DNA of 11,229 nucleotides from a virus. Lineage: Duplodnaviria; Heunggongvirae; Uroviricota; Caudoviricetes. How positions within the stretch are numbered: the stretch's first letter is position 1; the number at the start of each line of letters is the position of its first letter. The stretch lies in the IMG/VR virus record IMGVR_UViG_2711768032_000007. One strand, written 5' to 3'. Positions 1,395-11,229 of the stretch are shown here, piece by piece. A program made the translations under genes and the position numbers. The notes under the pieces were generated by a model. The model was given only the letters and a program-made list of their open reading frames with translations. It was not told the origin of the DNA and did not search any database.

Positions 1395-1446
1395 TCTTAG
1401 AAACCGATCACATACAGCTGCATTTATTAAGGTTATCATCCGTTTC
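1395..1446 (+). promoter_or_regulatory. Putative cyaR promoter (-10-like TATCAT at 1434-1439; TCACA CRP-type half-site at 1408-1412)
   Basis: The -10-like hexamer ends 7 nt before the inferred cyaR 5' end at 1447. cyaR is known to be CRP-activated, but only one good CRP half-site is visible by eye. Position inferred, not measured. Confidence 0.4.
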
Positions 1447-1533
1447 GCTGAAAAACATAACCCATAAAATGCTAGCTGTACCAGGAACCACCTCCTTAGC
1501 CTGTGTAATCTCCCTTACACGGGCTTATTTTTT
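1447..1533 (+). ncRNA. cyaR: CyaR (RyeE) Hfq-binding small RNA
   Basis: 87-nt stretch GCTGAAAAACATAACCCATAAAATGCTAGCTGTACCAGGAACCACCTCCTTAGCCTGTGTAATCTCCCTTACACGGGCTTATTTTTT matches the E. coli CyaR sequence as I recall it. Ends in an intrinsic terminator hairpin (GCCTGTGTAA / TTACACGGGC) plus a U-run. Lies directly downstream of yegQ. Confidence 0.85.
1507..1533. other. P2-type attachment-site core (27 bp) at the ogr-proximal prophage-host junction
   Basis: Reverse complement of 1507-1533 is AAAAAATAAGCCCGTGTAAGGGAGATT, which matches the P2 att core as I recall it. It coincides with the cyaR terminator, a known P2 integration target in E. coli. ogr lies about 100 bp away, as expected for this prophage end. 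Confidence 0.75.
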
Positions 1534-1634: not shown

Positions 1635-1853
1635 TTACATCCACATAATTTGCTGCCCTGATGGCAACGGGTGCGGCCTTACGGCGTGGACTTCTCCCGG
1701 CTTCACGATGTATCGCTGTACCGACTCATAAGTGATGAACGTGGCACTGCAATTCACGTTCTGACACTGGTGATAACGCTCTTTTGTCGTGTCAGTGATA
1801 TAGCGGCTTGTACGCGCATGTGCGGCATGCTGGCATAAAGGACAATGAAACAT
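1635..1853 (-). CDS. ogr: Late gene transcription activator Ogr (zinc-finger)
   Basis: 72-aa product MFHCPLCQHAAHARTSRYITDTTKERYHQCQNVNCSATFITYESVQRYIVKPGEVHAVRPHPLPSGQQIMWM with the C-X2-C...C-X4-C zinc-binding pattern of P2 Ogr. GAGG-type Shine-Dalgarno motif upstream of the ATG at 1853. The six-frame ORF extends in frame to 1916, but the canonical 72-aa start is preferred. Confidence 0.85.
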   Translation of the reverse strand: MFHCPLCQHAAHARTSRYITDTTKERYHQCQNVNCSATFITYESVQRYIVKPGEVHAVRPHPLPSGQQIMWM

Positions 1854-1934
1854 CGCGAGCACCTCTTCCGGTTTTGTTGATGGTGCCATTTTAGTTAATT
1901 TATCCTTATAAAACAAATAGATAAAATAAAAACA

Positions 1935-3098
1935 TCACTCGTCATCTTCTGTTTCGTACTCCACATCAGAAAGCCTGACCTCAAGCTCCAGGGACGTCGT
2001 GAAGCCGCTATTATTCAGAAAATGTGTCACCTTAGTGATTGTCCAGTCCTGCTCGTCTATGACGCGCTTAAAGCCTGACACTTTGACCGGTGTTTCCGTG
2101 TAAATATCTGCACGACCGGTAGCCAGGCTGATGGAGAACTCCGCAACGCCCCGTTGCAGTTTATCCCACTTCGCCTGAGCGGCGCGCATGGCCTGCGCTT
2201 TCGTGGCATATACCGTGGTCAGGGCAAAAACATTGTCAGCCTCACCGGCCATGTATTCACCTTCGCGCGCTTCCGGTACTTTTGGCGCTTTCTTCTGCGT
2301 GACCGGTTTCGCTTTCGGGTGCTCCAGTGCGCGCAGGTGTTTCTCTTTCTTTTTGCGTTTCAGTTTTACCTTCTGCTTTTGTGGCTTCGGGTCTTTGGTA
2401 TGTAACCACTTTGCCGTTACGCCTGTGTAGGCTCCACGGTCAGCAATCGCAAAATGATGACGGTCGCCGTCGCTGCGGGTGATGGTAATCTGCGGGATTT
2501 TTTTACCGCTGGCCGTCACCCCCTGCCCCGCTTTGAGAAACAGCAGTTTTCCCATTTTTACCGACACCTCACCGCCGTTGCGTTCAGCAAGACGGGTCAG
2601 GAATTTCGCATCGGACTCCTGCGACTGGTCGATGTGCGGGATTTTAATTCCGGCCAGTGACGGAGCGACACTGGCTTCCAGCCTGTTACGGGAGGCAATC
2701 GCCTCAACAATCGCACCGAGCGTGGTGTCATGCCAGGAGCCTTCCCGGCGGGAATTGAGCGTGCCACGAAAATCTGCACTCCGGGCGCGGATGGTGACCA
2801 CATCCGGTGCGCCCCGGTGTTCAACCTCATCAACGGTGAATTTCCCCTTGCATACCAGGGCAAAACCTTTCCAGCCGATATACACCGTCAGGACAGCGCC
2901 ACGAACCGGCAGCCCGACCTGCCCGTCGGCATCGTTCAGTTCAATATCAAGCTGGTCAGCCTCAAAGCCCCGGTTATCCGTCAGGGTCATGCTCATCAGA
3001 CGGTCACTGATATTGCCGGTAATATCCCTGCTGTCGAGCATCAGCATGTAATCCGGCGTCAGCGTACTGCCTGCATCAAATGTCAGCGCATCCAGCAT
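1935..3098 (-). CDS. D: P2 gpD-like tail protein (late control gene D protein)
   Basis: 387-aa ORF with the same length and position as P2 gpD (after U, before ogr). Its start overlaps the U stop (TAATG). Confidence 0.9.
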   Translation of the reverse strand: MLDALTFDAGSTLTPDYMLMLDSRDITGNISDRLMSMTLTDNRGFEADQLDIELNDADGQVGLPVRGAVLTVYIGWKGFALVCKGKFTVDEVEHRGAPDVVTIRARSADFRGTLNSRREGSWHDTTLGAIVEAIASRNRLEASVAPSLAGIKIPHIDQSQESDAKFLTRLAERNGGEVSVKMGKLLFLKAGQGVTASGKKIPQITITRSDGDRHHFAIADRGAYTGVTAKWLHTKDPKPQKQKVKLKRKKKEKHLRALEHPKAKPVTQKKAPKVPEAREGEYMAGEADNVFALTTVYATKAQAMRAAQAKWDKLQRGVAEFSISLATGRADIYTETPVKVSGFKRVIDEQDWTITKVTHFLNNSGFTTSLELEVRLSDVEYETEDDE

Positions 3099-7046: not shown

Positions 7047-8237
7047 TTAATTGCTGTTAACCGAAGTGACCAGATTTGCCAGGTATTTATCGGTAATACG
7101 CTGGCGCAGGGTCAGGTTTTCAAGAGGAGGCACCGGTGTATAGTCGTAGTCGATATACAGTTTTCCGGCCTTGAGGGTTTCCGCATCGTTGGATTCTTCG
7201 CTGAACCAGCAGGTCGCATCCACGATATAGCCGTTTGTTTTCAGCTCACGGAATTTGGCATTGATGCCGTCAACGATGTCGCGAATCAGCGTTGCTGTGA
7301 TGGGCTTATCCACCGCCCACATATGCGCCTCAGCCATCGTGTCGGCCAGCACCTGCGCGGTGCGGGTGTAGTTTTCAAAGAGGAACAGCGGGTCATCAGA
7401 GCAGGTACGGTTACCCCAGAATCGGAAACCGTCGCGGCGAATCAGCGTAGTGACGCCTGACTCGTTAAGCAGGTCAGCATCGGTGCCGGACTCCTGCAAA
7501 TCCCAGAATACAGATGCGCTGATGCCGGTAACACCGTTTACCCCGACGTTGGACAGCGTTTTATGCCAGCCCTGCTCCTGGTCGATTTTAGCGCGCAGAC
7601 CCAGCGCACGGGCGGTGGCATACGCGGTGGCGGTGGTGCTGCTGACCGTATCCCATGCGAGGAAATCCGGCCAGATGACCATCAGCTCACGCTGGCTGAA
7701 ATTCTGACGGTAGGCTTTCACCTCGGAAATGGTTTTACAGCCCCATGCGCTGATATACCCGAAAGCGCGCAGCTTCTGACAGACTGATGCCAGTGCAACA
7801 GCCACCTCTTTGGTGTCCAGTCCCGGCACGCCGAGAATACGCGGTTTAACACCGGTTACCGACTCCGCCGCCAGCAGGGCTTTCAGTCCGGTGTACTGAC
7901 CGTTTTCGTCGGTGGTGCCGATGATATTGGAAACGGTCTGCGCGAGTTTCGTTTCCTCGTCGTCGCCGGTGCCGTCTTCCACACGCACGACAACGGTGAC
8001 CGGTTTTGACTGGTCGGCGATGGCCTGCAACGATGCCGCCAGCGTGCCTTTTTTACCAGCCTTTGCAATTGCGCTCTGCACATTGGTAATCAGCACCGGT
8101 TTATTGATGGGGAAGGTTTCCGCATCCGCATCGCTGGCCGTGCAGACCATGCCGACAATGGCCGTGGATACGGTGGAAATGACGCGGGTGCCGTCGTTAA
8201 TCTCCAGCACCTGCACGCCGTGATGATAGTCACTCAT
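7047..8237 (-). CDS. FI: P2 gpFI-like contractile tail sheath protein
   Basis: 396-aa ORF, first gene of the FI-FII-E-T-U-D operon. GGAG ribosome-binding site 8 nt upstream of the ATG. Length and position match P2 gpFI. Confidence 0.9.
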   Translation of the reverse strand: MSDYHHGVQVLEINDGTRVISTVSTAIVGMVCTASDADAETFPINKPVLITNVQSAIAKAGKKGTLAASLQAIADQSKPVTVVVRVEDGTGDDEETKLAQTVSNIIGTTDENGQYTGLKALLAAESVTGVKPRILGVPGLDTKEVAVALASVCQKLRAFGYISAWGCKTISEVKAYRQNFSQRELMVIWPDFLAWDTVSSTTATAYATARALGLRAKIDQEQGWHKTLSNVGVNGVTGISASVFWDLQESGTDADLLNESGVTTLIRRDGFRFWGNRTCSDDPLFLFENYTRTAQVLADTMAEAHMWAVDKPITATLIRDIVDGINAKFRELKTNGYIVDATCWFSEESNDAETLKAGKLYIDYDYTPVPPLENLTLRQRITDKYLANLVTSVNSN

Positions 8238-8268
8238 CCGTTTAACTCCGTGGTTAATGGGTGCAACT

Positions 8269-8315
8269 ATTATCCGTTGGGTAGTACATGAGACGCTATT
8301 TGACCTGGCTGGTCA
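8269..8315 (-). promoter_or_regulatory. Candidate late promoter for the FI operon (-10-like GATAAT, weak -35, upstream dyad TGACC-N5-GGTCA)
   Basis: On the minus strand, GATAAT lies at 8274-8269 with a poor -35, as expected for an activator-dependent promoter. A dyad sits at 8301-8315. A canonical Ogr-type TGT-N12-ACA site was NOT found by eye, so the call is weak. Confidence 0.3.
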
Positions 8316-8330
8316 GTGGATGAAACATCA

Positions 8331-8361
8331 GATAAAGAAAAGGCGGGCAATCTGCCCGCCT
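8331..8361 (-). terminator. Intrinsic terminator (minus strand) separating the accessory island from the FI operon
   Basis: Perfect 9-bp stem AGGCGGGCA / TGCCCGCCT with a 3-nt loop (8341-8361). On the minus strand it is followed by TTTCTTTATC. Confidence 0.5.
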
Positions 8362-8592
8362 GTCCTGATTTGTACACACTCATTTTCCGACTGACAATTT
8401 ACATAGCCAAAATGCTATCAAATCTGACAGCCTGTTTTGAGCGAAGAGGAACCTGAGATTGTGGTATGCTAATTTATGGGGAGCAGGTCAATTGTATTAG
8501 TTATCTTTTTGCCTTTCTTTATCCCATTTCTTTACAGTGGTCTGATACCACTCTTCACGTGTTCGTTATTCCTCTGCTCTGTCACTTGAATT

Positions 8593-9189
8593 TTAGTTGT
8601 CTGTTTTAATTTTTTTGCTTCCCTGGGAAATCGGCCTCCAGTCTTCTCTAATATTTTTCATCTGCTCAGCTATCTGTGTCATTGGACTCCTTGCACCTAA
8701 GTAGCTAACCCCCTCGAAAGAAGCCATATCATAAGAATACTCATTCCGCTCTCTTTCAGTTGAGCCCGGCTGTTTAGACCAGCTAATACTAACAGAATAA
8801 ACTTGATCTTTAATCTGGTCATACTTACAAAGACTGCTGTTGAGGGAATGGCCGTTTTTCAATACGCTAACCTTGCTAAATGGTATACCTTTATTTTTTC
8901 TATGTTCTGCATTAACCAGTGGGGGATTAAATCCGACTTCAATATCATAGGCTGGGGCATTTCCGGTATTAGCAATATTGATATCAAAATAAAAAGCAGC
9001 CCAAGAATTTGGTTCAAGAGTCACAACGACATGAGGTTGAACTGATGCGTCAACCATCCTTTTTGTCTCGTCTGCTAATAGCCTTGTTACTCTCCACAAG
9101 AAAAATGTAGCAACTGCTGTTAGCAATGCTGCCAAAGCGGAGATAAGTGTACTTACTGTGTTTATATGCTCTGCGATAAATTCGATCAT
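8593..9189 (-). CDS. Hypothetical membrane-anchored protein (198 aa; one N-terminal transmembrane helix plus ~160-aa soluble domain), accessory cargo
   Basis: ORF with an AAGGA ribosome-binding site about 7 nt upstream of the ATG. Residues ~11-32 (TVSTLISALAALLTAVATFFLW) form a hydrophobic helix. AT-rich codon usage unlike the flanking tail genes. No family recognised. Confidence 0.6.
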   Translation of the reverse strand: MIEFIAEHINTVSTLISALAALLTAVATFFLWRVTRLLADETKRMVDASVQPHVVVTLEPNSWAAFYFDINIANTGNAPAYDIEVGFNPPLVNAEHRKNKGIPFSKVSVLKNGHSLNSSLCKYDQIKDQVYSVSISWSKQPGSTERERNEYSYDMASFEGVSYLGARSPMTQIAEQMKNIREDWRPISQGSKKIKTDN

Positions 9190-9609
9190 GAGTTGTCCTT
9201 GGGGGCGTACTAATTGTTTTCAATACTAAAATAGCGCCGGGCTTGAAAAATTGCACACTTATGGTTCGATTTACCTCAACAGTTAAGGCTTCAACTTCCC
9301 CCATGCACCTCACCCAGCCCAAGACTGTATGAGGTCTGACAAAGAACTTCCTGACACTTGAAAACGAGGCAACGGCTAGGGTTTCTCGTAGGGCAAGGAT
9401 TGAATACGAAGCCTGTATATTGCTCCGCGAACGCTGCTGAGGGCAGTTTAAATGTTGGGCGTTTATGTAGCCTTTCACTCACCAGCATGAGTTCAATGTC
9501 TGTGAGTTACCGACAACAATATAAAGGGGGTGGCATCATCATATATCCAAGCTAGAGTCAAATCCTCTAACTGGTTTTATGATCAGTGTCAATTGTTTGA
9601 TTATTGAAC

Positions 9610-9638
9610 GTTTACGAAGCAGCACGGGAGCCATATAA
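9610..9638 (+). promoter_or_regulatory. Candidate sigma70 promoter for the DUF3606-like gene (TTTACG-N17-TATAAC)
   Basis: -35-like TTTACG at 9610-9615 and -10-like TATAAC at 9633-9638 with 17-bp spacing. The predicted start lies downstream of the 9642 ATG, which favours the 9681 start codon. Confidence 0.3.
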
Positions 9639-9680
9639 CTAATGGGCAGGTATAAGCCTGTATCACGAGGAATCAGTAAA

Positions 9681-9860
9681 ATGGCTGATGATAAGACCAA
9701 AATCGGTACCCCTGACAATGATTTAATAAGTATCAAACAGGATTACGAGAGACGTGATTGGGCTGAAAAGTTTGGAGTTAGCGAGACCAAACTTGTTCAA
9801 GCCGTACAGGCTGTAGGTCATTCGGCTAAGAAAGTACAGGCATGGCTTAAAGACCATTAA
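9681..9860 (+). CDS. DUF3606-like small protein (59 aa from ATG 9681; alternative 72-aa form from ATG 9642)
   Basis: MADDKTKIGTPDNDLISIKQDYERRDWAEKFGVSETKLVQAVQAVGHSAKKVQAWLKDH fits the DUF3606 pattern as I recall it (N-terminal MADDK..., central EKFGVS, C-terminal AV..VG). AGGA ribosome-binding site at 9668-9671. Confidence 0.65.
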   Translation: MADDKTKIGTPDNDLISIKQDYERRDWAEKFGVSETKLVQAVQAVGHSAKKVQAWLKDH

Positions 9861-9866
9861 TATATG

Positions 9867-9890
9867 AGCGCCTTTCTAGGCGCTTTTTTC
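9867..9890 (+). terminator. Intrinsic terminator after the DUF3606-like gene
   Basis: 7-bp stem AGCGCCT / AGGCGCT with loop TTCT, followed by TTTTTT (9885-9890). Confidence 0.5.
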
Positions 9891-9912
9891 TTTGTCCTTT
9901 GGGGGATGATTT

Positions 9913-10191
9913 ATGGCTAATAATTTATTTATTACTTACGACCTCATTAAAACGAAAGATTATGCGGCTGTGTATGATGCAATTAAATCTTTAGGAAATT
10001 GGGCTTTAACAACTGAATCGAACTGGTATGTTAACTGTAGTTACTCTGCCGAGGATGCAGCCAAAATTGTGAGGGCGGTCATGGATAGTGATGATAAGCT
10101 TATTGTTGTAGACGCAACCAATAACTCAGCTTATTGGTACAATCTCTCAGATGAAGTTAGTAACCAAATTCTGACTGAGTGGAACAAGTAA
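9913..10191 (+). CDS. Hypothetical small protein (92 aa), accessory cargo
   Basis: Strong GGGGGA Shine-Dalgarno motif 6 nt upstream of the ATG. Alternating hydrophobic and polar segments suggest a compact alpha/beta domain. No family recognised. Confidence 0.55.
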   Translation: MANNLFITYDLIKTKDYAAVYDAIKSLGNWALTTESNWYVNCSYSAEDAAKIVRAVMDSDDKLIVVDATNNSAYWYNLSDEVSNQILTEWNK

Positions 10192-10220
10192 TTAAAGGGG
10201 GTGGGTAGCCCCCTTTAATT
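10190..10220. terminator. Long perfect hairpin (12-bp stem) downstream of the 92-aa ORF, probable terminator
   Basis: AATTAAAGGGGG tgggtag CCCCCTTTAATT. The 3' half of the stem carries the U-rich tract. It lies between the convergent 92-aa ORF (plus) and tfa (minus). Confidence 0.5.
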
Positions 10221-10411
10221 CAGAAACTATCATGATTGAAACATTAAATATACTGGGTTAATTCTTTCATCCTTGCTCCCTTGCTATATGTCCTGAAAGC
10301 GTCCTTTTTAGCCTTCTGCTCAGTATGTCCGGTAATGGCACAGAGCGGACTGCCAGATTAGGCTTTACTCTGTGCCATAGATATGTAATCTCACACCAGA
10401 GCTTATACAAC

Positions 10412-10960
10412 TTATTGCGGCATTTCCGGCCATTCAGGATTTGCAGGATCCACACGACTGACCAAAACGCTGTAGCGTTCCCAAGCCTCCAGCCGTGTGC
10501 GCTCCTCCTCTGTTGCCATGTTCAGCCTGACAGCGCGCTCCAGCGGCAAAATCACGGATTCAGCATCTGCAAGAAGTCTGGCTTTCCGATTTTCTGCCTG
10601 CTGCTGCAATTCCTCTGCCGTATAAATGCGTTTAATCACTTTGCCGTCCTTAAACATCCAGTTCCCTGAAATGTCCGCCCGTCGGTTAGCAGTAATATCC
10701 GCCACTTCAACCACACTTAATCCATCCGGTCTGATAGCTGTCACATCCTTTTCCACATAGCGGATGATATTATCTTTGTCGTACGCTATTTTTATCGTGT
10801 CATCAGCAAAATACTTTTGTTCTTCGTACCAGTTCTTACCATCTTCTGTAAAAAACCAGACGACATCAAAGTTCTTTGTCAATTGATATTGTTCAACCGT
10901 TTTTGGATTACCTGCCGTTATATTTATCAAATGCTGCGTATTTTCATGAAAGGAGATCAC
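10412..10960 (-). CDS. G: Tail fibre assembly protein (P2 gpG / Tfa family); 5' end atypical and possibly disrupted
   Basis: C-terminal half (...[28 protein letters not shown]...[42 protein letters not shown]) is typical of Tfa chaperones, and AGNPKT is present near the N-terminus. The ORF has no in-frame ATG near the expected start: ACG sits where the family start Met is expected. The called start is a GTG at 10958-10960 that lies inside an IS-like repeat. Confidence 0.75.
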
Positions 10961-11072
10961 TCAATAACTTCCATCGAGATCGGGTAATAACATTTGAACA
11001 GATCGCTGAATAACATCGATGGAGATCACTTTTGACTCATTTTGTTATTCAGTGATCTCCATCAATGTTATT
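10952..11072. repeat. Cluster of direct and inverted repeats (GGAGATCACT / AATAAC motifs) resembling the multi-repeat terminus of an IS21-family element
   Basis: GGAGATCACTCAATAAC at 10952-10968. AATAACATCGATGGAGATCACT at 11009-11030 and its near-perfect inverse AGTGATCTCCATCAATGTTATT at 11051-11072 (21/22). Six GATC sites between 10955 and 11095. Confidence 0.5.
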
Positions 11073-11127
11073 GGAACTTCACAGGTGTGTTGATCTGTAT
11101 CTTTTGCCATTCCGGTAAAGGATACCT

Positions 11128-11229
11128 ATGCCAACAGTTCCAATTTCTATGAGAAAACTTAAAGAAATTCTTAGGCTTAAATACGGTGTTGGACTCAGCC
11201 ATCGACAAATTGGTCGTAGTCTTGCAATC
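11128..11229 (+). CDS. istA: IS21-family transposase IstA, N-terminal fragment (truncated by window end)
   Basis: MPTVPISMRKLKEILRLKYGVGLSHRQIGRSLAI resembles the conserved N-terminal helix-turn-helix of IS21-family IstA proteins (MRK-I/L-K/R-E-I/V-LRL...GLS.R.IA pattern) as I recall it. AAGGA ribosome-binding site 6 nt upstream. Only 34 codons are in the window. Confidence 0.5.
   Translation, partial: MPTVPISMRKLKEILRLKYGVGLSHRQIGRSLAI

Follow-up and report, generated by a model that had tools for sequence, protein, structure and literature searches.

We found that the long spacer between two divergent accessory genes at 9190-9680 of the window, the 11,229-nucleotide stretch of phage DNA analysed here, is most probably (about 0.85) a recombination and deletion scar, in which remnants of the backbone of an integrated island are left between two cargo modules. 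This reading was built on homologies, collinearity, junctions and a divergence pattern, all directly observed, and it makes the spacer a feature of an ordinary and previously described kind, though one whose history can be read unusually well. The first-pass annotation had offered a structured RNA or a degraded gene remnant as candidates; the second held in kind but not in detail, as there are three remnants instead of one, and they come from island backbone, not from an earlier cargo gene.

The window holds the right-hand (tail) end of a P2-like prophage of E. coli, with the following features around the spacer:

1-1362: peptidase-U32 gene of the host
1445-1530: CyaR sRNA gene, the sole real Rfam match in the whole window (gathering threshold)
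1635-1916, minus strand: the prophage gene ogr
7047-8237, minus strand: tail sheath gene (FI side), flanking the cargo island
8593-9189, minus strand: orf198, the left cargo gene (phrog_11802, E = 7e-123, a family that carries no function assignment)
9681-9860, plus strand: DUF3606 gene, 59 aa (PF12244, E = 9e-18; phrog_10779), with the RefSeq start from strain D6
9913-10191, plus strand: orf92, second gene of the right cargo module (phrog_1090, no function assigned)
10412-10960: tail fibre assembly gene (G side, Caudo_TAP), flanking the cargo island

The prophage genes all lie on the minus strand (ogr, D, U, tape measure, E/E', tail tube and tail sheath), and the gap between the sheath and fibre assembly genes is a 2.2-kb AT-rich island (41% GC, against 56% in the tail block) with three genes, orf198, the DUF3606 gene and orf92. 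This island is the P2 Z/fun accessory slot, a named P2 hotspot within the tail genes (PMC13586616): it is located between the tail fibre assembly (G) and sheath (FI) genes, and its content is variable, with other P2-like phages matching 13-15% of it, at the two ends only. The island is 99.1% identical to that of phage R18C and, over its whole length, 98.7% identical to the P2-EC53 'proviral Z-region' (AJ512682.1). The latter record describes the same position, with ORF1 (the orf198/230 gene) and flanking repeats annotated, but its annotation is otherwise limited to the RBS and -10 of ORF1, without DUF3606, orf92 or the spacer remnants; within the literature collection searched, no paper on P2-EC53 came up. 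The ~100-bp 'inverted repeats' that it places at the island ends gave only a ~20-nt imperfect inverted match in our own alignment. These annotated end repeats fall outside the spacer. A tRNA/tmRNA scan found none.

With the orf198 start at 9189 (minus strand), and a DUF3606 reading frame that opens at 9642 on the plus strand and has its RefSeq start at ATG 9681, the gap measures 452-491 bp, and the long gap between divergent genes is real as first described. We set the spacer at 9190-9680, with 9681 as the most likely start of the DUF3606 gene. A sensitive blastn search of the spacer against complete E. coli genomes gave about 100 full-length copies, together with partial matches that split it into blocks. 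Judged by these similarities, the spacer is a mosaic of five pieces, A1, A2, B, C and D:

9190-9236, minus strand: A1, a leader peculiar to orf198, including its Shine-Dalgarno sequence (AAGGA, 9196-9200)
9237-9328, unstranded: A2, remnant of non-coding island backbone bordering the recombinase-side cargo slot
9329-9404 (approximate), plus strand: B, ~12 nt upstream and the first 22 codons of the island gene directly before the capsid gene
9402-9415, plus strand: junction 2 and linker, GAATACGAAGCCTG, which overlaps B at its end by a short match, GAA.A
9415-9555, plus strand: C, the last 45 codons and TAG stop of an endonuclease VII-family gene
9570-9680, plus strand: D, upstream region of the DUF3606-orf92 module

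The spacer had been described as more GC-rich than the genes on either side. The direction of this difference was borne out, but its significance over the whole region was not (44.5% GC in the spacer; 39.8% in the genes on its flanks, Fisher p = 0.09; 40.7% elsewhere in the island, p = 0.15). Only the core at 9287-9450, an interval picked post hoc, stands out, with 51.8% GC (p = 0.006). As the excess is small, the observation is only partly confirmed. The complementary segments GGCTTC and GAAGCC pointed out in the first-pass annotation are both present, at 9287 and 9408, and such pairs occur at chance level, with 32 6-mer pairs in the spacer versus 25.6 +/- 6.2 in shuffles. A repeat search likewise gave only short, chance-level direct and inverted repeats and no tandem repeats of note; no inverted repeats of the kind that bound an invertible segment were found in the spacer, despite the serine recombinase beside the homologous region in intact islands. 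Terminator-like sites all fall outside the spacer, Pfam and PADLOC searches with the spacer ORFs gave no matches, and a search of a plasmid collection gave no informative match.

A2, B and C all come from one kind of integrated island of ~15 kb, found at tRNA-Leu in E2348/69 and, with the same architecture, at tRNA-Gly in NCTC11023. In order, this island carries cargo, a serine recombinase gene (Resolvase/HTH_7), a 1.26-kb gap, a DEAD/DEAH helicase gene and ~8 small genes, followed by the pre-capsid gene, the capsid gene, an HNH_3 nuclease gene, two small genes, an endonuclease VII gene, cargo and an integrase gene. An orf198 homologue of 232 aa is part of the left cargo of NCTC11023, beside the recombinase, and the right cargo there, straight after endonuclease VII and before the integrase, is made up of DUF3606 and an orf92 homologue, with block D in front. 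orf92 follows DUF3606 beside the integrase in the EEC_W5 island as well as in that of NCTC11023. Thus, this type of island has every part of the window's cassette, namely orf198 (minus), A, B, C, D, DUF3606 (plus) and orf92 (plus), with order and strands unchanged. The island backbone has a GC content of 53-58%, versus 36-45% in its cargo, and because of this difference A2, B and C stand out as a modest GC bump between AT-rich cargo genes; the spacer pieces have GC fractions of 0.45-0.48, and the deleted segment 0.53.

The capsid gene of the island encodes a major-head-protein homologue of 331 aa (phrog_267, E = 3e-64), and only the helicase and integrase genes are larger. Pfam and PHROG scans of 10 island proteins recognised only the major head protein, HNH, EndoVII, helicase and resolvase, and the pre-capsid gene gave a weak HTH_23 match (E = 4e-4). 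The annotations of the E2348/69 and NCTC11023 islands list no large terminase, portal or head-tail adaptor/connector products, and no alpA-type regulator, primase-replicase or terS was identified in the island annotation and the 10 scanned proteins. Going by its genes, from which it is known here, the parent island is a satellite-like, capsid-encoding element of non-P4 type.

At the left end of the spacer, orf198 shares 91% amino acid identity with its 232-aa homologue next to the NCTC11023 recombinase gene. A TAT to TAA change has cut it to 198 aa relative to the 230-aa form, and apart from this 32-aa C-terminal truncation the cargo genes beside the spacer are intact. Differences from the QML220601 copy fall mostly at codon position 3 (13 of 17), as do those from the other three diverged copies (12/15 to 13/20), and this excess indicates that orf198 is under purifying selection. 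Unrelated islands with orf198/230 homologues carry block A (9190-9328) upstream of these genes at ~85% conservation, with an abrupt end of the similarity at 9328. Its first part, A1, is kept only with an orf198/230 homologue (window, Pantoea, lambdoid copies, E2348/69 and OkiPb01685) and is missing where the same backbone borders other cargo. E2348/69, OkiPb01685, strain 550 and isolate 12 all have a segment with 81-86% identity to A2, ~320 nt before the serine recombinase gene, and in the last two it adjoins a DUF3800 gene and a hypothetical gene as cargo, without orf198. This presence beside unrelated cargo, near the same recombinase gene, identifies A2 as island backbone at the edge of the cargo slot. 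In intact islands A2 terminates in a perfect hairpin, CCCAGCC-GAA-GGCTGGG, and in the window the right arm of this hairpin is cut where B begins (junction 1, ~9328). A1, perhaps together with A2, likely supplies the ribosome-binding site of orf198, and the orf198 promoter probably also lies in A1/A2, where there is no clear consensus.

B shares 83% nucleotide identity (E = 4e-12) with positions 3001-3078 of the LT883142 island (locus L008), in which the coding sequence of WP_096321343.1 starts at 3013. The start codon of this gene is lost in the window (ATG to AAG at 9342), and the frame reads KNFLTLENEATARVSRRARIEY, against MTLLTPENVAAARAARSARIEH in the island gene. The pre-capsid gene of NCTC11023 gave no alignment with B. 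Since B fits only the LT883142 allele, no single sequenced island contains the closest relatives of all the pieces. The linker that follows B is identical to a sequence that precedes the endonuclease VII ATG by ~45 nt in intact islands (alignment with loci L004 and L010) and thus shows where B was joined to the endonuclease region.

C translates as VYCSANAAEGSLNVGRLCSLSLTSMSSMSVSYRQQYKGGGIIIYPS followed by a stop codon. Of these 45 residues, 27 (60%) are identical to the end of WP_063946175.1, which has the same stop codon (tblastn E = 1e-14, BLASTP E = 3e-9); this 142-aa 'endonuclease domain-containing protein' matches PF02945 at E = 2.9e-6 and also phrog_423. The plus-strand ORF at 9358-9555 had been counted among those with no recognisable product, wrongly in this case, because 45 of its residues match the Endonuclease_7 C-terminus. 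At the nucleotide level, C is ~91% identical to the 3' end of a whole endonuclease frame in Pantoea. The first 97 residues of the endonuclease left no trace in any frame of the spacer, and the catalytic HCH/zinc-binding core (..NHCHRIG..) lies inside 315 nt that are found only in Pantoea. C is therefore a homologue of the last 45 residues of Endonuclease VII family proteins (PF02945, phrog_423) encoded by islands, but it is a fragment without the N-terminal ~97 codons, the HCH core, the start codon and the ribosome-binding site, and it is no intact, translatable, conserved ORF. When the endonuclease protein was searched against phages by tblastn, only distant (<40%) EndoVII genes of virulent phages were found, and no P2-like phage with an intact copy.

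It is accordingly extremely improbable, in our judgement, that one of the short spacer ORFs is a real small gene, for example one for a truncated C-terminal peptide of endonuclease VII. The 65-codon frame at 9358-9555 is open in the window and in R18C, and its endonuclease-derived part is open in all copies. However, the frame starts with TTG, without a Shine-Dalgarno sequence, meets a stop at codon 5 in three copies from the lambdoid context, and has accumulated substitutions with no third-position bias (3, 1, 3 and 3, 4, 5 by codon position); its 65-aa translation has no Pfam match, and the catalytic/zinc-binding part is deleted. The minus-strand 65-aa ORF likewise gains an internal stop in other copies and has no Shine-Dalgarno sequence.

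An orf92 scan over one genome per species gave only two loci outside E. coli. The Pectobacterium locus has its orf92 homologue in an unrelated context, without any spacer sequence. The Pantoea leporis locus contains a cassette ~96% identical to that of the window, with the layout orf200 (minus), A, B, ~40 nt, whole endonuclease VII frame, D, DUF3606 and orf92. The endonuclease encoded there, which includes ..NHCHRIGRVRAAVYCSANAAEG.., shares 72% identity with its E. coli island counterpart (E = 3e-70). Its reading frame shows a 1-nt gap around codon 10, a truncated integrase (PF00589, E = 3e-11) lies alongside, and the Pantoea copy, too, resides in a decaying element. Relative to Pantoea, all five aligned E. 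coli and phage copies (window, R18C and three prophages) are without exactly 315 nt. The multiple alignment places GTA at both ends of the missing block, and this microhomology at 9414-9417 of the window defines junction 3.

The three E. coli prophages, QML220601, D217-5 and UR21, carry the cassette at 95-96% identity and with the same spacer, adjoining DUF977/DUF1627 genes outside the P2 tail region. Genes of these two families are typical of lambdoid prophages. The similarity across contexts runs from ~8433 to ~10346-10350, and the occurrence of the same cassette and spacer in several contexts indicates that the cassette, scar included, moves as a unit. The spacer is whole across contexts that differ by 4-9%, save for point changes and one 3-nt indel, which could reflect a short time or weak selection. 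A further reading is that the collapsed-island cassette (~8433 to ~10350) is a functional mobile unit, whose scar is kept for a role as a long regulatory leader, as an insulator through which the two divergent cargo units stay under separate control, or as a recombination substrate. We regard this as quite unlikely; if the recombination-substrate role were true, prophages and satellite-like islands would swap cargo via shared backbone fragments.

The divergence of the pieces fits the reading of the middle as a scar. Relative to the lambdoid copies and to Pantoea, respectively, the window differs by 2.5-2.8% and 3.4% in orf198, by 1.1-1.7% and 1.7% in DUF3606, and by 2.5-2.9% and 2.9% in orf92. 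The values for the outer blocks are 2.2-2.9% and 7.9% in A, and 3.6% and 5.4% in D, and those for the inner pieces are 7.1-8.2% and 14.1% in B, and 3.6-5.0% and 8.6% in C. The differences in B and C are spread evenly over codon positions, with no third-position bias. Given this faster divergence and lack of codon bias, B and C behave as neutral DNA, and the better preservation of A and D is as expected for regulatory regions of the flanking genes; with small counts (5-12 differences per piece), the pattern is supportive, not conclusive.

D contains a candidate promoter, TTTACG (9611-9616), 17 nt and TATAAC (9634-9639), and a Shine-Dalgarno sequence, GAGG, at 9668-9671 before the DUF3606 ATG at 9681. 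D is kept in every context of the plus-strand module, and D and both hexamers are conserved in Pantoea, the lambdoid copies, EEC_W5, NCTC11023 and EC21Z-048, where the sequence between the hexamers differs. At its left edge D also has a palindrome-like sequence, ACTGGTTTTATGATCAGT (9570-9587), which is a perfect ACTGGT..ACCAGT in two other contexts. A consensus promoter scan returned no site in the spacer, fewer than in shuffles; it missed the hexamers of D because its rule demands that the second hexamer end in T, and our promoter assignments consequently draw on conservation and on a near-consensus match by eye. From this resemblance to the consensus, D would be the promoter, and possibly the operator, of the DUF3606-orf92 module, with a start point ~35-45 nt before the DUF3606 ATG. 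Divergent promoters, which the first-pass annotation had also proposed, remain plausible.

The spacer had further been proposed to hold a structured or regulatory RNA, and the analyses argue against this. In an Rfam scan of 8200-11229 at E<=10, the only match in the spacer was a 15.5-bit snoRNA match of no relevance, and none reached the gathering threshold. When the 491-nt region was folded, its energy showed no excess over dinucleotide shuffles on either strand (z = -0.24 on plus, -0.31 on minus), and 120-nt sliding windows were unremarkable, with z from -2.45 to +1.16. For the better-conserved ends, A (minus strand) and D (plus strand), RNAalifold put the covariation term at +0.52 and -0.06 kcal/mol, respectively, and no compensatory change was convincing, although the 4-5 related sequences limit the power of this comparison. 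Of the two marks of a structured RNA, a fold energy below that of shuffles and compensatory changes, neither was thus found. The minus strand of A2 from an intact island matched ctRNA_pGA1 at 20.8 bits (E = 0.43; gathering score 45). We took this match as chance, as it is far below gathering and needs the hairpin that is broken in the window.

A free-standing structured ncRNA, be it of the sRNA or antisense type or the RNA component of a toxin-antitoxin or defence system, is consequently very unlikely. The long gap between accessory genes with its GC-richer core, together with the weak ctRNA_pGA1 match, would speak for it, but the spacer has no Rfam match of weight, no tandem or direct repeats of note, no fold excess and no covariation, and its GC-rich core is fully accounted for by protein-gene fragments.

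The remnants might instead have been co-opted, such that the orf198 promoter lies in C, ~330 nt upstream of the gene, and A2-B-C serves as a regulatory leader or as an insulator between the divergent units. The depositors of P2-EC53 indeed placed a -10 (TATATT) for ORF1 at window positions 9518-9523 on the minus strand, inside C; A1/A2 have no good sigma-70 consensus; the spacer is whole in three genomic contexts; and all five copies have a predicted imperfect hairpin on the minus strand that spans the border of A1 and A2. The annotated -10 is, however, a sequence prediction only, and divergence in B and C is 2-4 times as fast as in the genes and close to the rate of third codon positions in orf198. 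Moreover, the would-be leader is 315 nt longer in the Pantoea form, and neither the minus-strand fold, no better than shuffles, nor the unfavourable covariation term of A supports a conserved structure. On balance, we consider co-option unlikely, and the middle of the spacer (the distal end of A2, B and C) is most likely an inert scar.

Under the preferred reading of a scar left by island collapse, the source island, an element of Enterobacterales, would have carried an orf198/230-type gene by its serine recombinase on the left, and DUF3606-orf92 between endonuclease VII and the integrase on the right. Two deletions would then have stripped nearly all of the backbone. The first would have removed the stretch from the border hairpin up to just upstream of the pre-capsid gene (junction 1, ~9328), and the second that from codon 22 of the pre-capsid gene to ~45 nt upstream of the endonuclease VII gene (junction 2, ~9402-9405), to yield the form still present in Pantoea leporis. 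Junction 3 would reflect a later, third deletion, in which 315 nt with the first two thirds of the endonuclease gene were lost, to leave the form in the window. This order is the most parsimonious one, since junctions 1 and 2 are common to Pantoea and E. coli. The resulting ~1.9-kb cassette would subsequently have come to lie in prophages in at least two settings, the P2 Z/fun slot (window, R18C and P2-EC53) and a lambdoid-type one, with only the two ends of the spacer as working parts.

The new part of this analysis is the provenance of each fragment, which provides a base-level worked example of how cargo is assembled in a phage hotspot: modules from opposite ends of an island would have been joined by backbone deletion, and the product moved into P2-type and lambdoid-type prophages. 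Such scars can serve as provenance markers, here for gene flow from a non-P4, capsid-encoding island into the P2 hotspot. We regard the question of a new RNA in the spacer as settled, in that there is none, and annotators may take from this case that GC-richer 'non-coding' DNA in AT-rich cargo islands is likelier to be backbone pseudogene fragments than regulatory RNAs. Since the general phenomenon is known (PMC13586616), the value of the example is illustrative, not conceptual.

Among known elements, the parent island can be compared with the PICI and cfPICI of Enterobacterales. PICI are defined by an integrase, an alpA/merR/stl-type regulator, a primase-replicase, a capsid-morphogenesis gene and terS, and cfPICI by a large terminase, portal and head-tail adaptor/connector besides the capsid gene (PMC10085698). 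The parent island resembles them in its tRNA integration, terminal integrase, replication-type helicase, major-head-protein homologue, HNH nuclease and cargo at the ends, whereas it has a DEAD/DEAH helicase instead of a recognised primase-replicase, and in addition a serine recombinase and endonuclease VII. The window itself holds only the scars of this island.

The closest parallel to the spacer itself comes from P2-like prophages and P4-like satellites, in which ~90% of pseudogenes are very small intergenic sequences, and more than half of those pseudogenes lie in defence-associated loci and were read as remnants of intense recombination (PMC13586616). Most such fragments match genes of unknown function, and no exchange between P2 and P4 was reported (PMC13586616). 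B and C are intergenic pseudogene fragments in this same sense, with intact counterparts in loci L004, L008, L010, L011 and L019. As in the published cases, the spacer is thus a short intergenic remnant with similarity to protein genes in a P2 accessory hotspot; it differs from them in that three fragments were sourced to a non-P4, capsid-encoding island and lie in their original order, and in that both an intermediate and an intact island of the ancestor type are at hand.

The ~1.9-kb cassette, consisting of orf198, the scar spacer, DUF3606 and orf92, was detected in three settings. One is the P2 Z/fun slot; in the second, lambdoid-type prophages (L014–L016), it adjoins DUF977/DUF1627 genes; in the third, the chromosome of Pantoea leporis (L012), it adjoins a truncated integrase. 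The cassette boundaries are alike in all three (window ~8433 and ~10346–10350). The cassette ends carry an imperfect inverted repeat of ~20 nt, formed by AATCTGACAGCCTGTTTTG and a partner near window 10341–10359.

Compared with the E. coli island genes, the endonuclease VII frame of the Pantoea leporis copy (L012 9229–9260) shows a 1-nt gap near codon 10. In the otherwise complete gene, four codons are also deleted directly upstream of the HCH motif. In view of these two lesions in its sequence, this "intermediate" copy is probably already a pseudogene.

The 3' end of orf198 also differs between copies:

8593–8595, minus strand, TAA stop codon of orf198

This TAA is TAT in phage R18C and in the lambdoid-context copies, where the frame runs to 230 aa, and the Pantoea homologue underwent a separate shortening, to 200 aa. 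Either the final ~30 residues of orf198 are dispensable, or the gene is beginning to decay; in contrast to the latter reading, substitutions in the remainder of orf198 fall mostly at third codon positions.

At the prophage end, an Rfam match (RF00112, 100.7 bits, E=1e-19) located a host sRNA gene:

1445–1530, plus strand, CyaR/RyeE sRNA gene

Since the host peptidase-U32 gene lies on one side of it and the prophage ogr gene on the other, the prophage end adjoins a host sRNA locus.

DUF3606 (59 aa) and orf92 recur together as a cargo module of two genes in capsid-encoding islands, where they occupy the slot next to the integrase. The module, or orf92, occurs at the following positions, listed with two further window features:

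Window 9681–10191, plus strand; NCTC11023 (L019) 14605–15118; further loci L009 3112–3626, L007 3120–3398 and L013 9824–10279
Window 9866–9885, plus strand, terminator-like hairpin followed by a T-run, between DUF3606 and orf92
Window 10190–10220, perfect 12-bp palindrome, 3' of orf92

In EC21Z-048, orf92 lacks its DUF3606 partner, and in Pectobacterium it is preceded by a different ORF of 40 aa. The hairpin stem is conserved across copies and its loop is variable; such a terminator-like element would be unexpected if the module were a single operon. PADLOC gave only a weak match for orf92 (Cas2_II, E=0.019), and its sequence has no relative in the PDB. The module could be a small toxin–antitoxin-like or defence pair.

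The parent islands (~15 kb) are located at tRNA-Leu in E2348/69 (L011) and at tRNA-Gly in NCTC11023. The family encodes an integrase, endonuclease VII, an HNH nuclease, a serine recombinase, a major-head-protein homologue, a DEAD/DEAH helicase and about eight small genes, with a 1.26-kb gap without annotation from the recombinase gene to the helicase gene. Its two cargo slots vary in content; AbiTii, Dcm, an RM system, DUF3800, orf230 and DUF3606–orf92 are among the cargo seen. The family looks like a phage satellite, but annotation and Pfam/PHROG scans of 10 proteins revealed no cfPICI-specific genes in these two islands.
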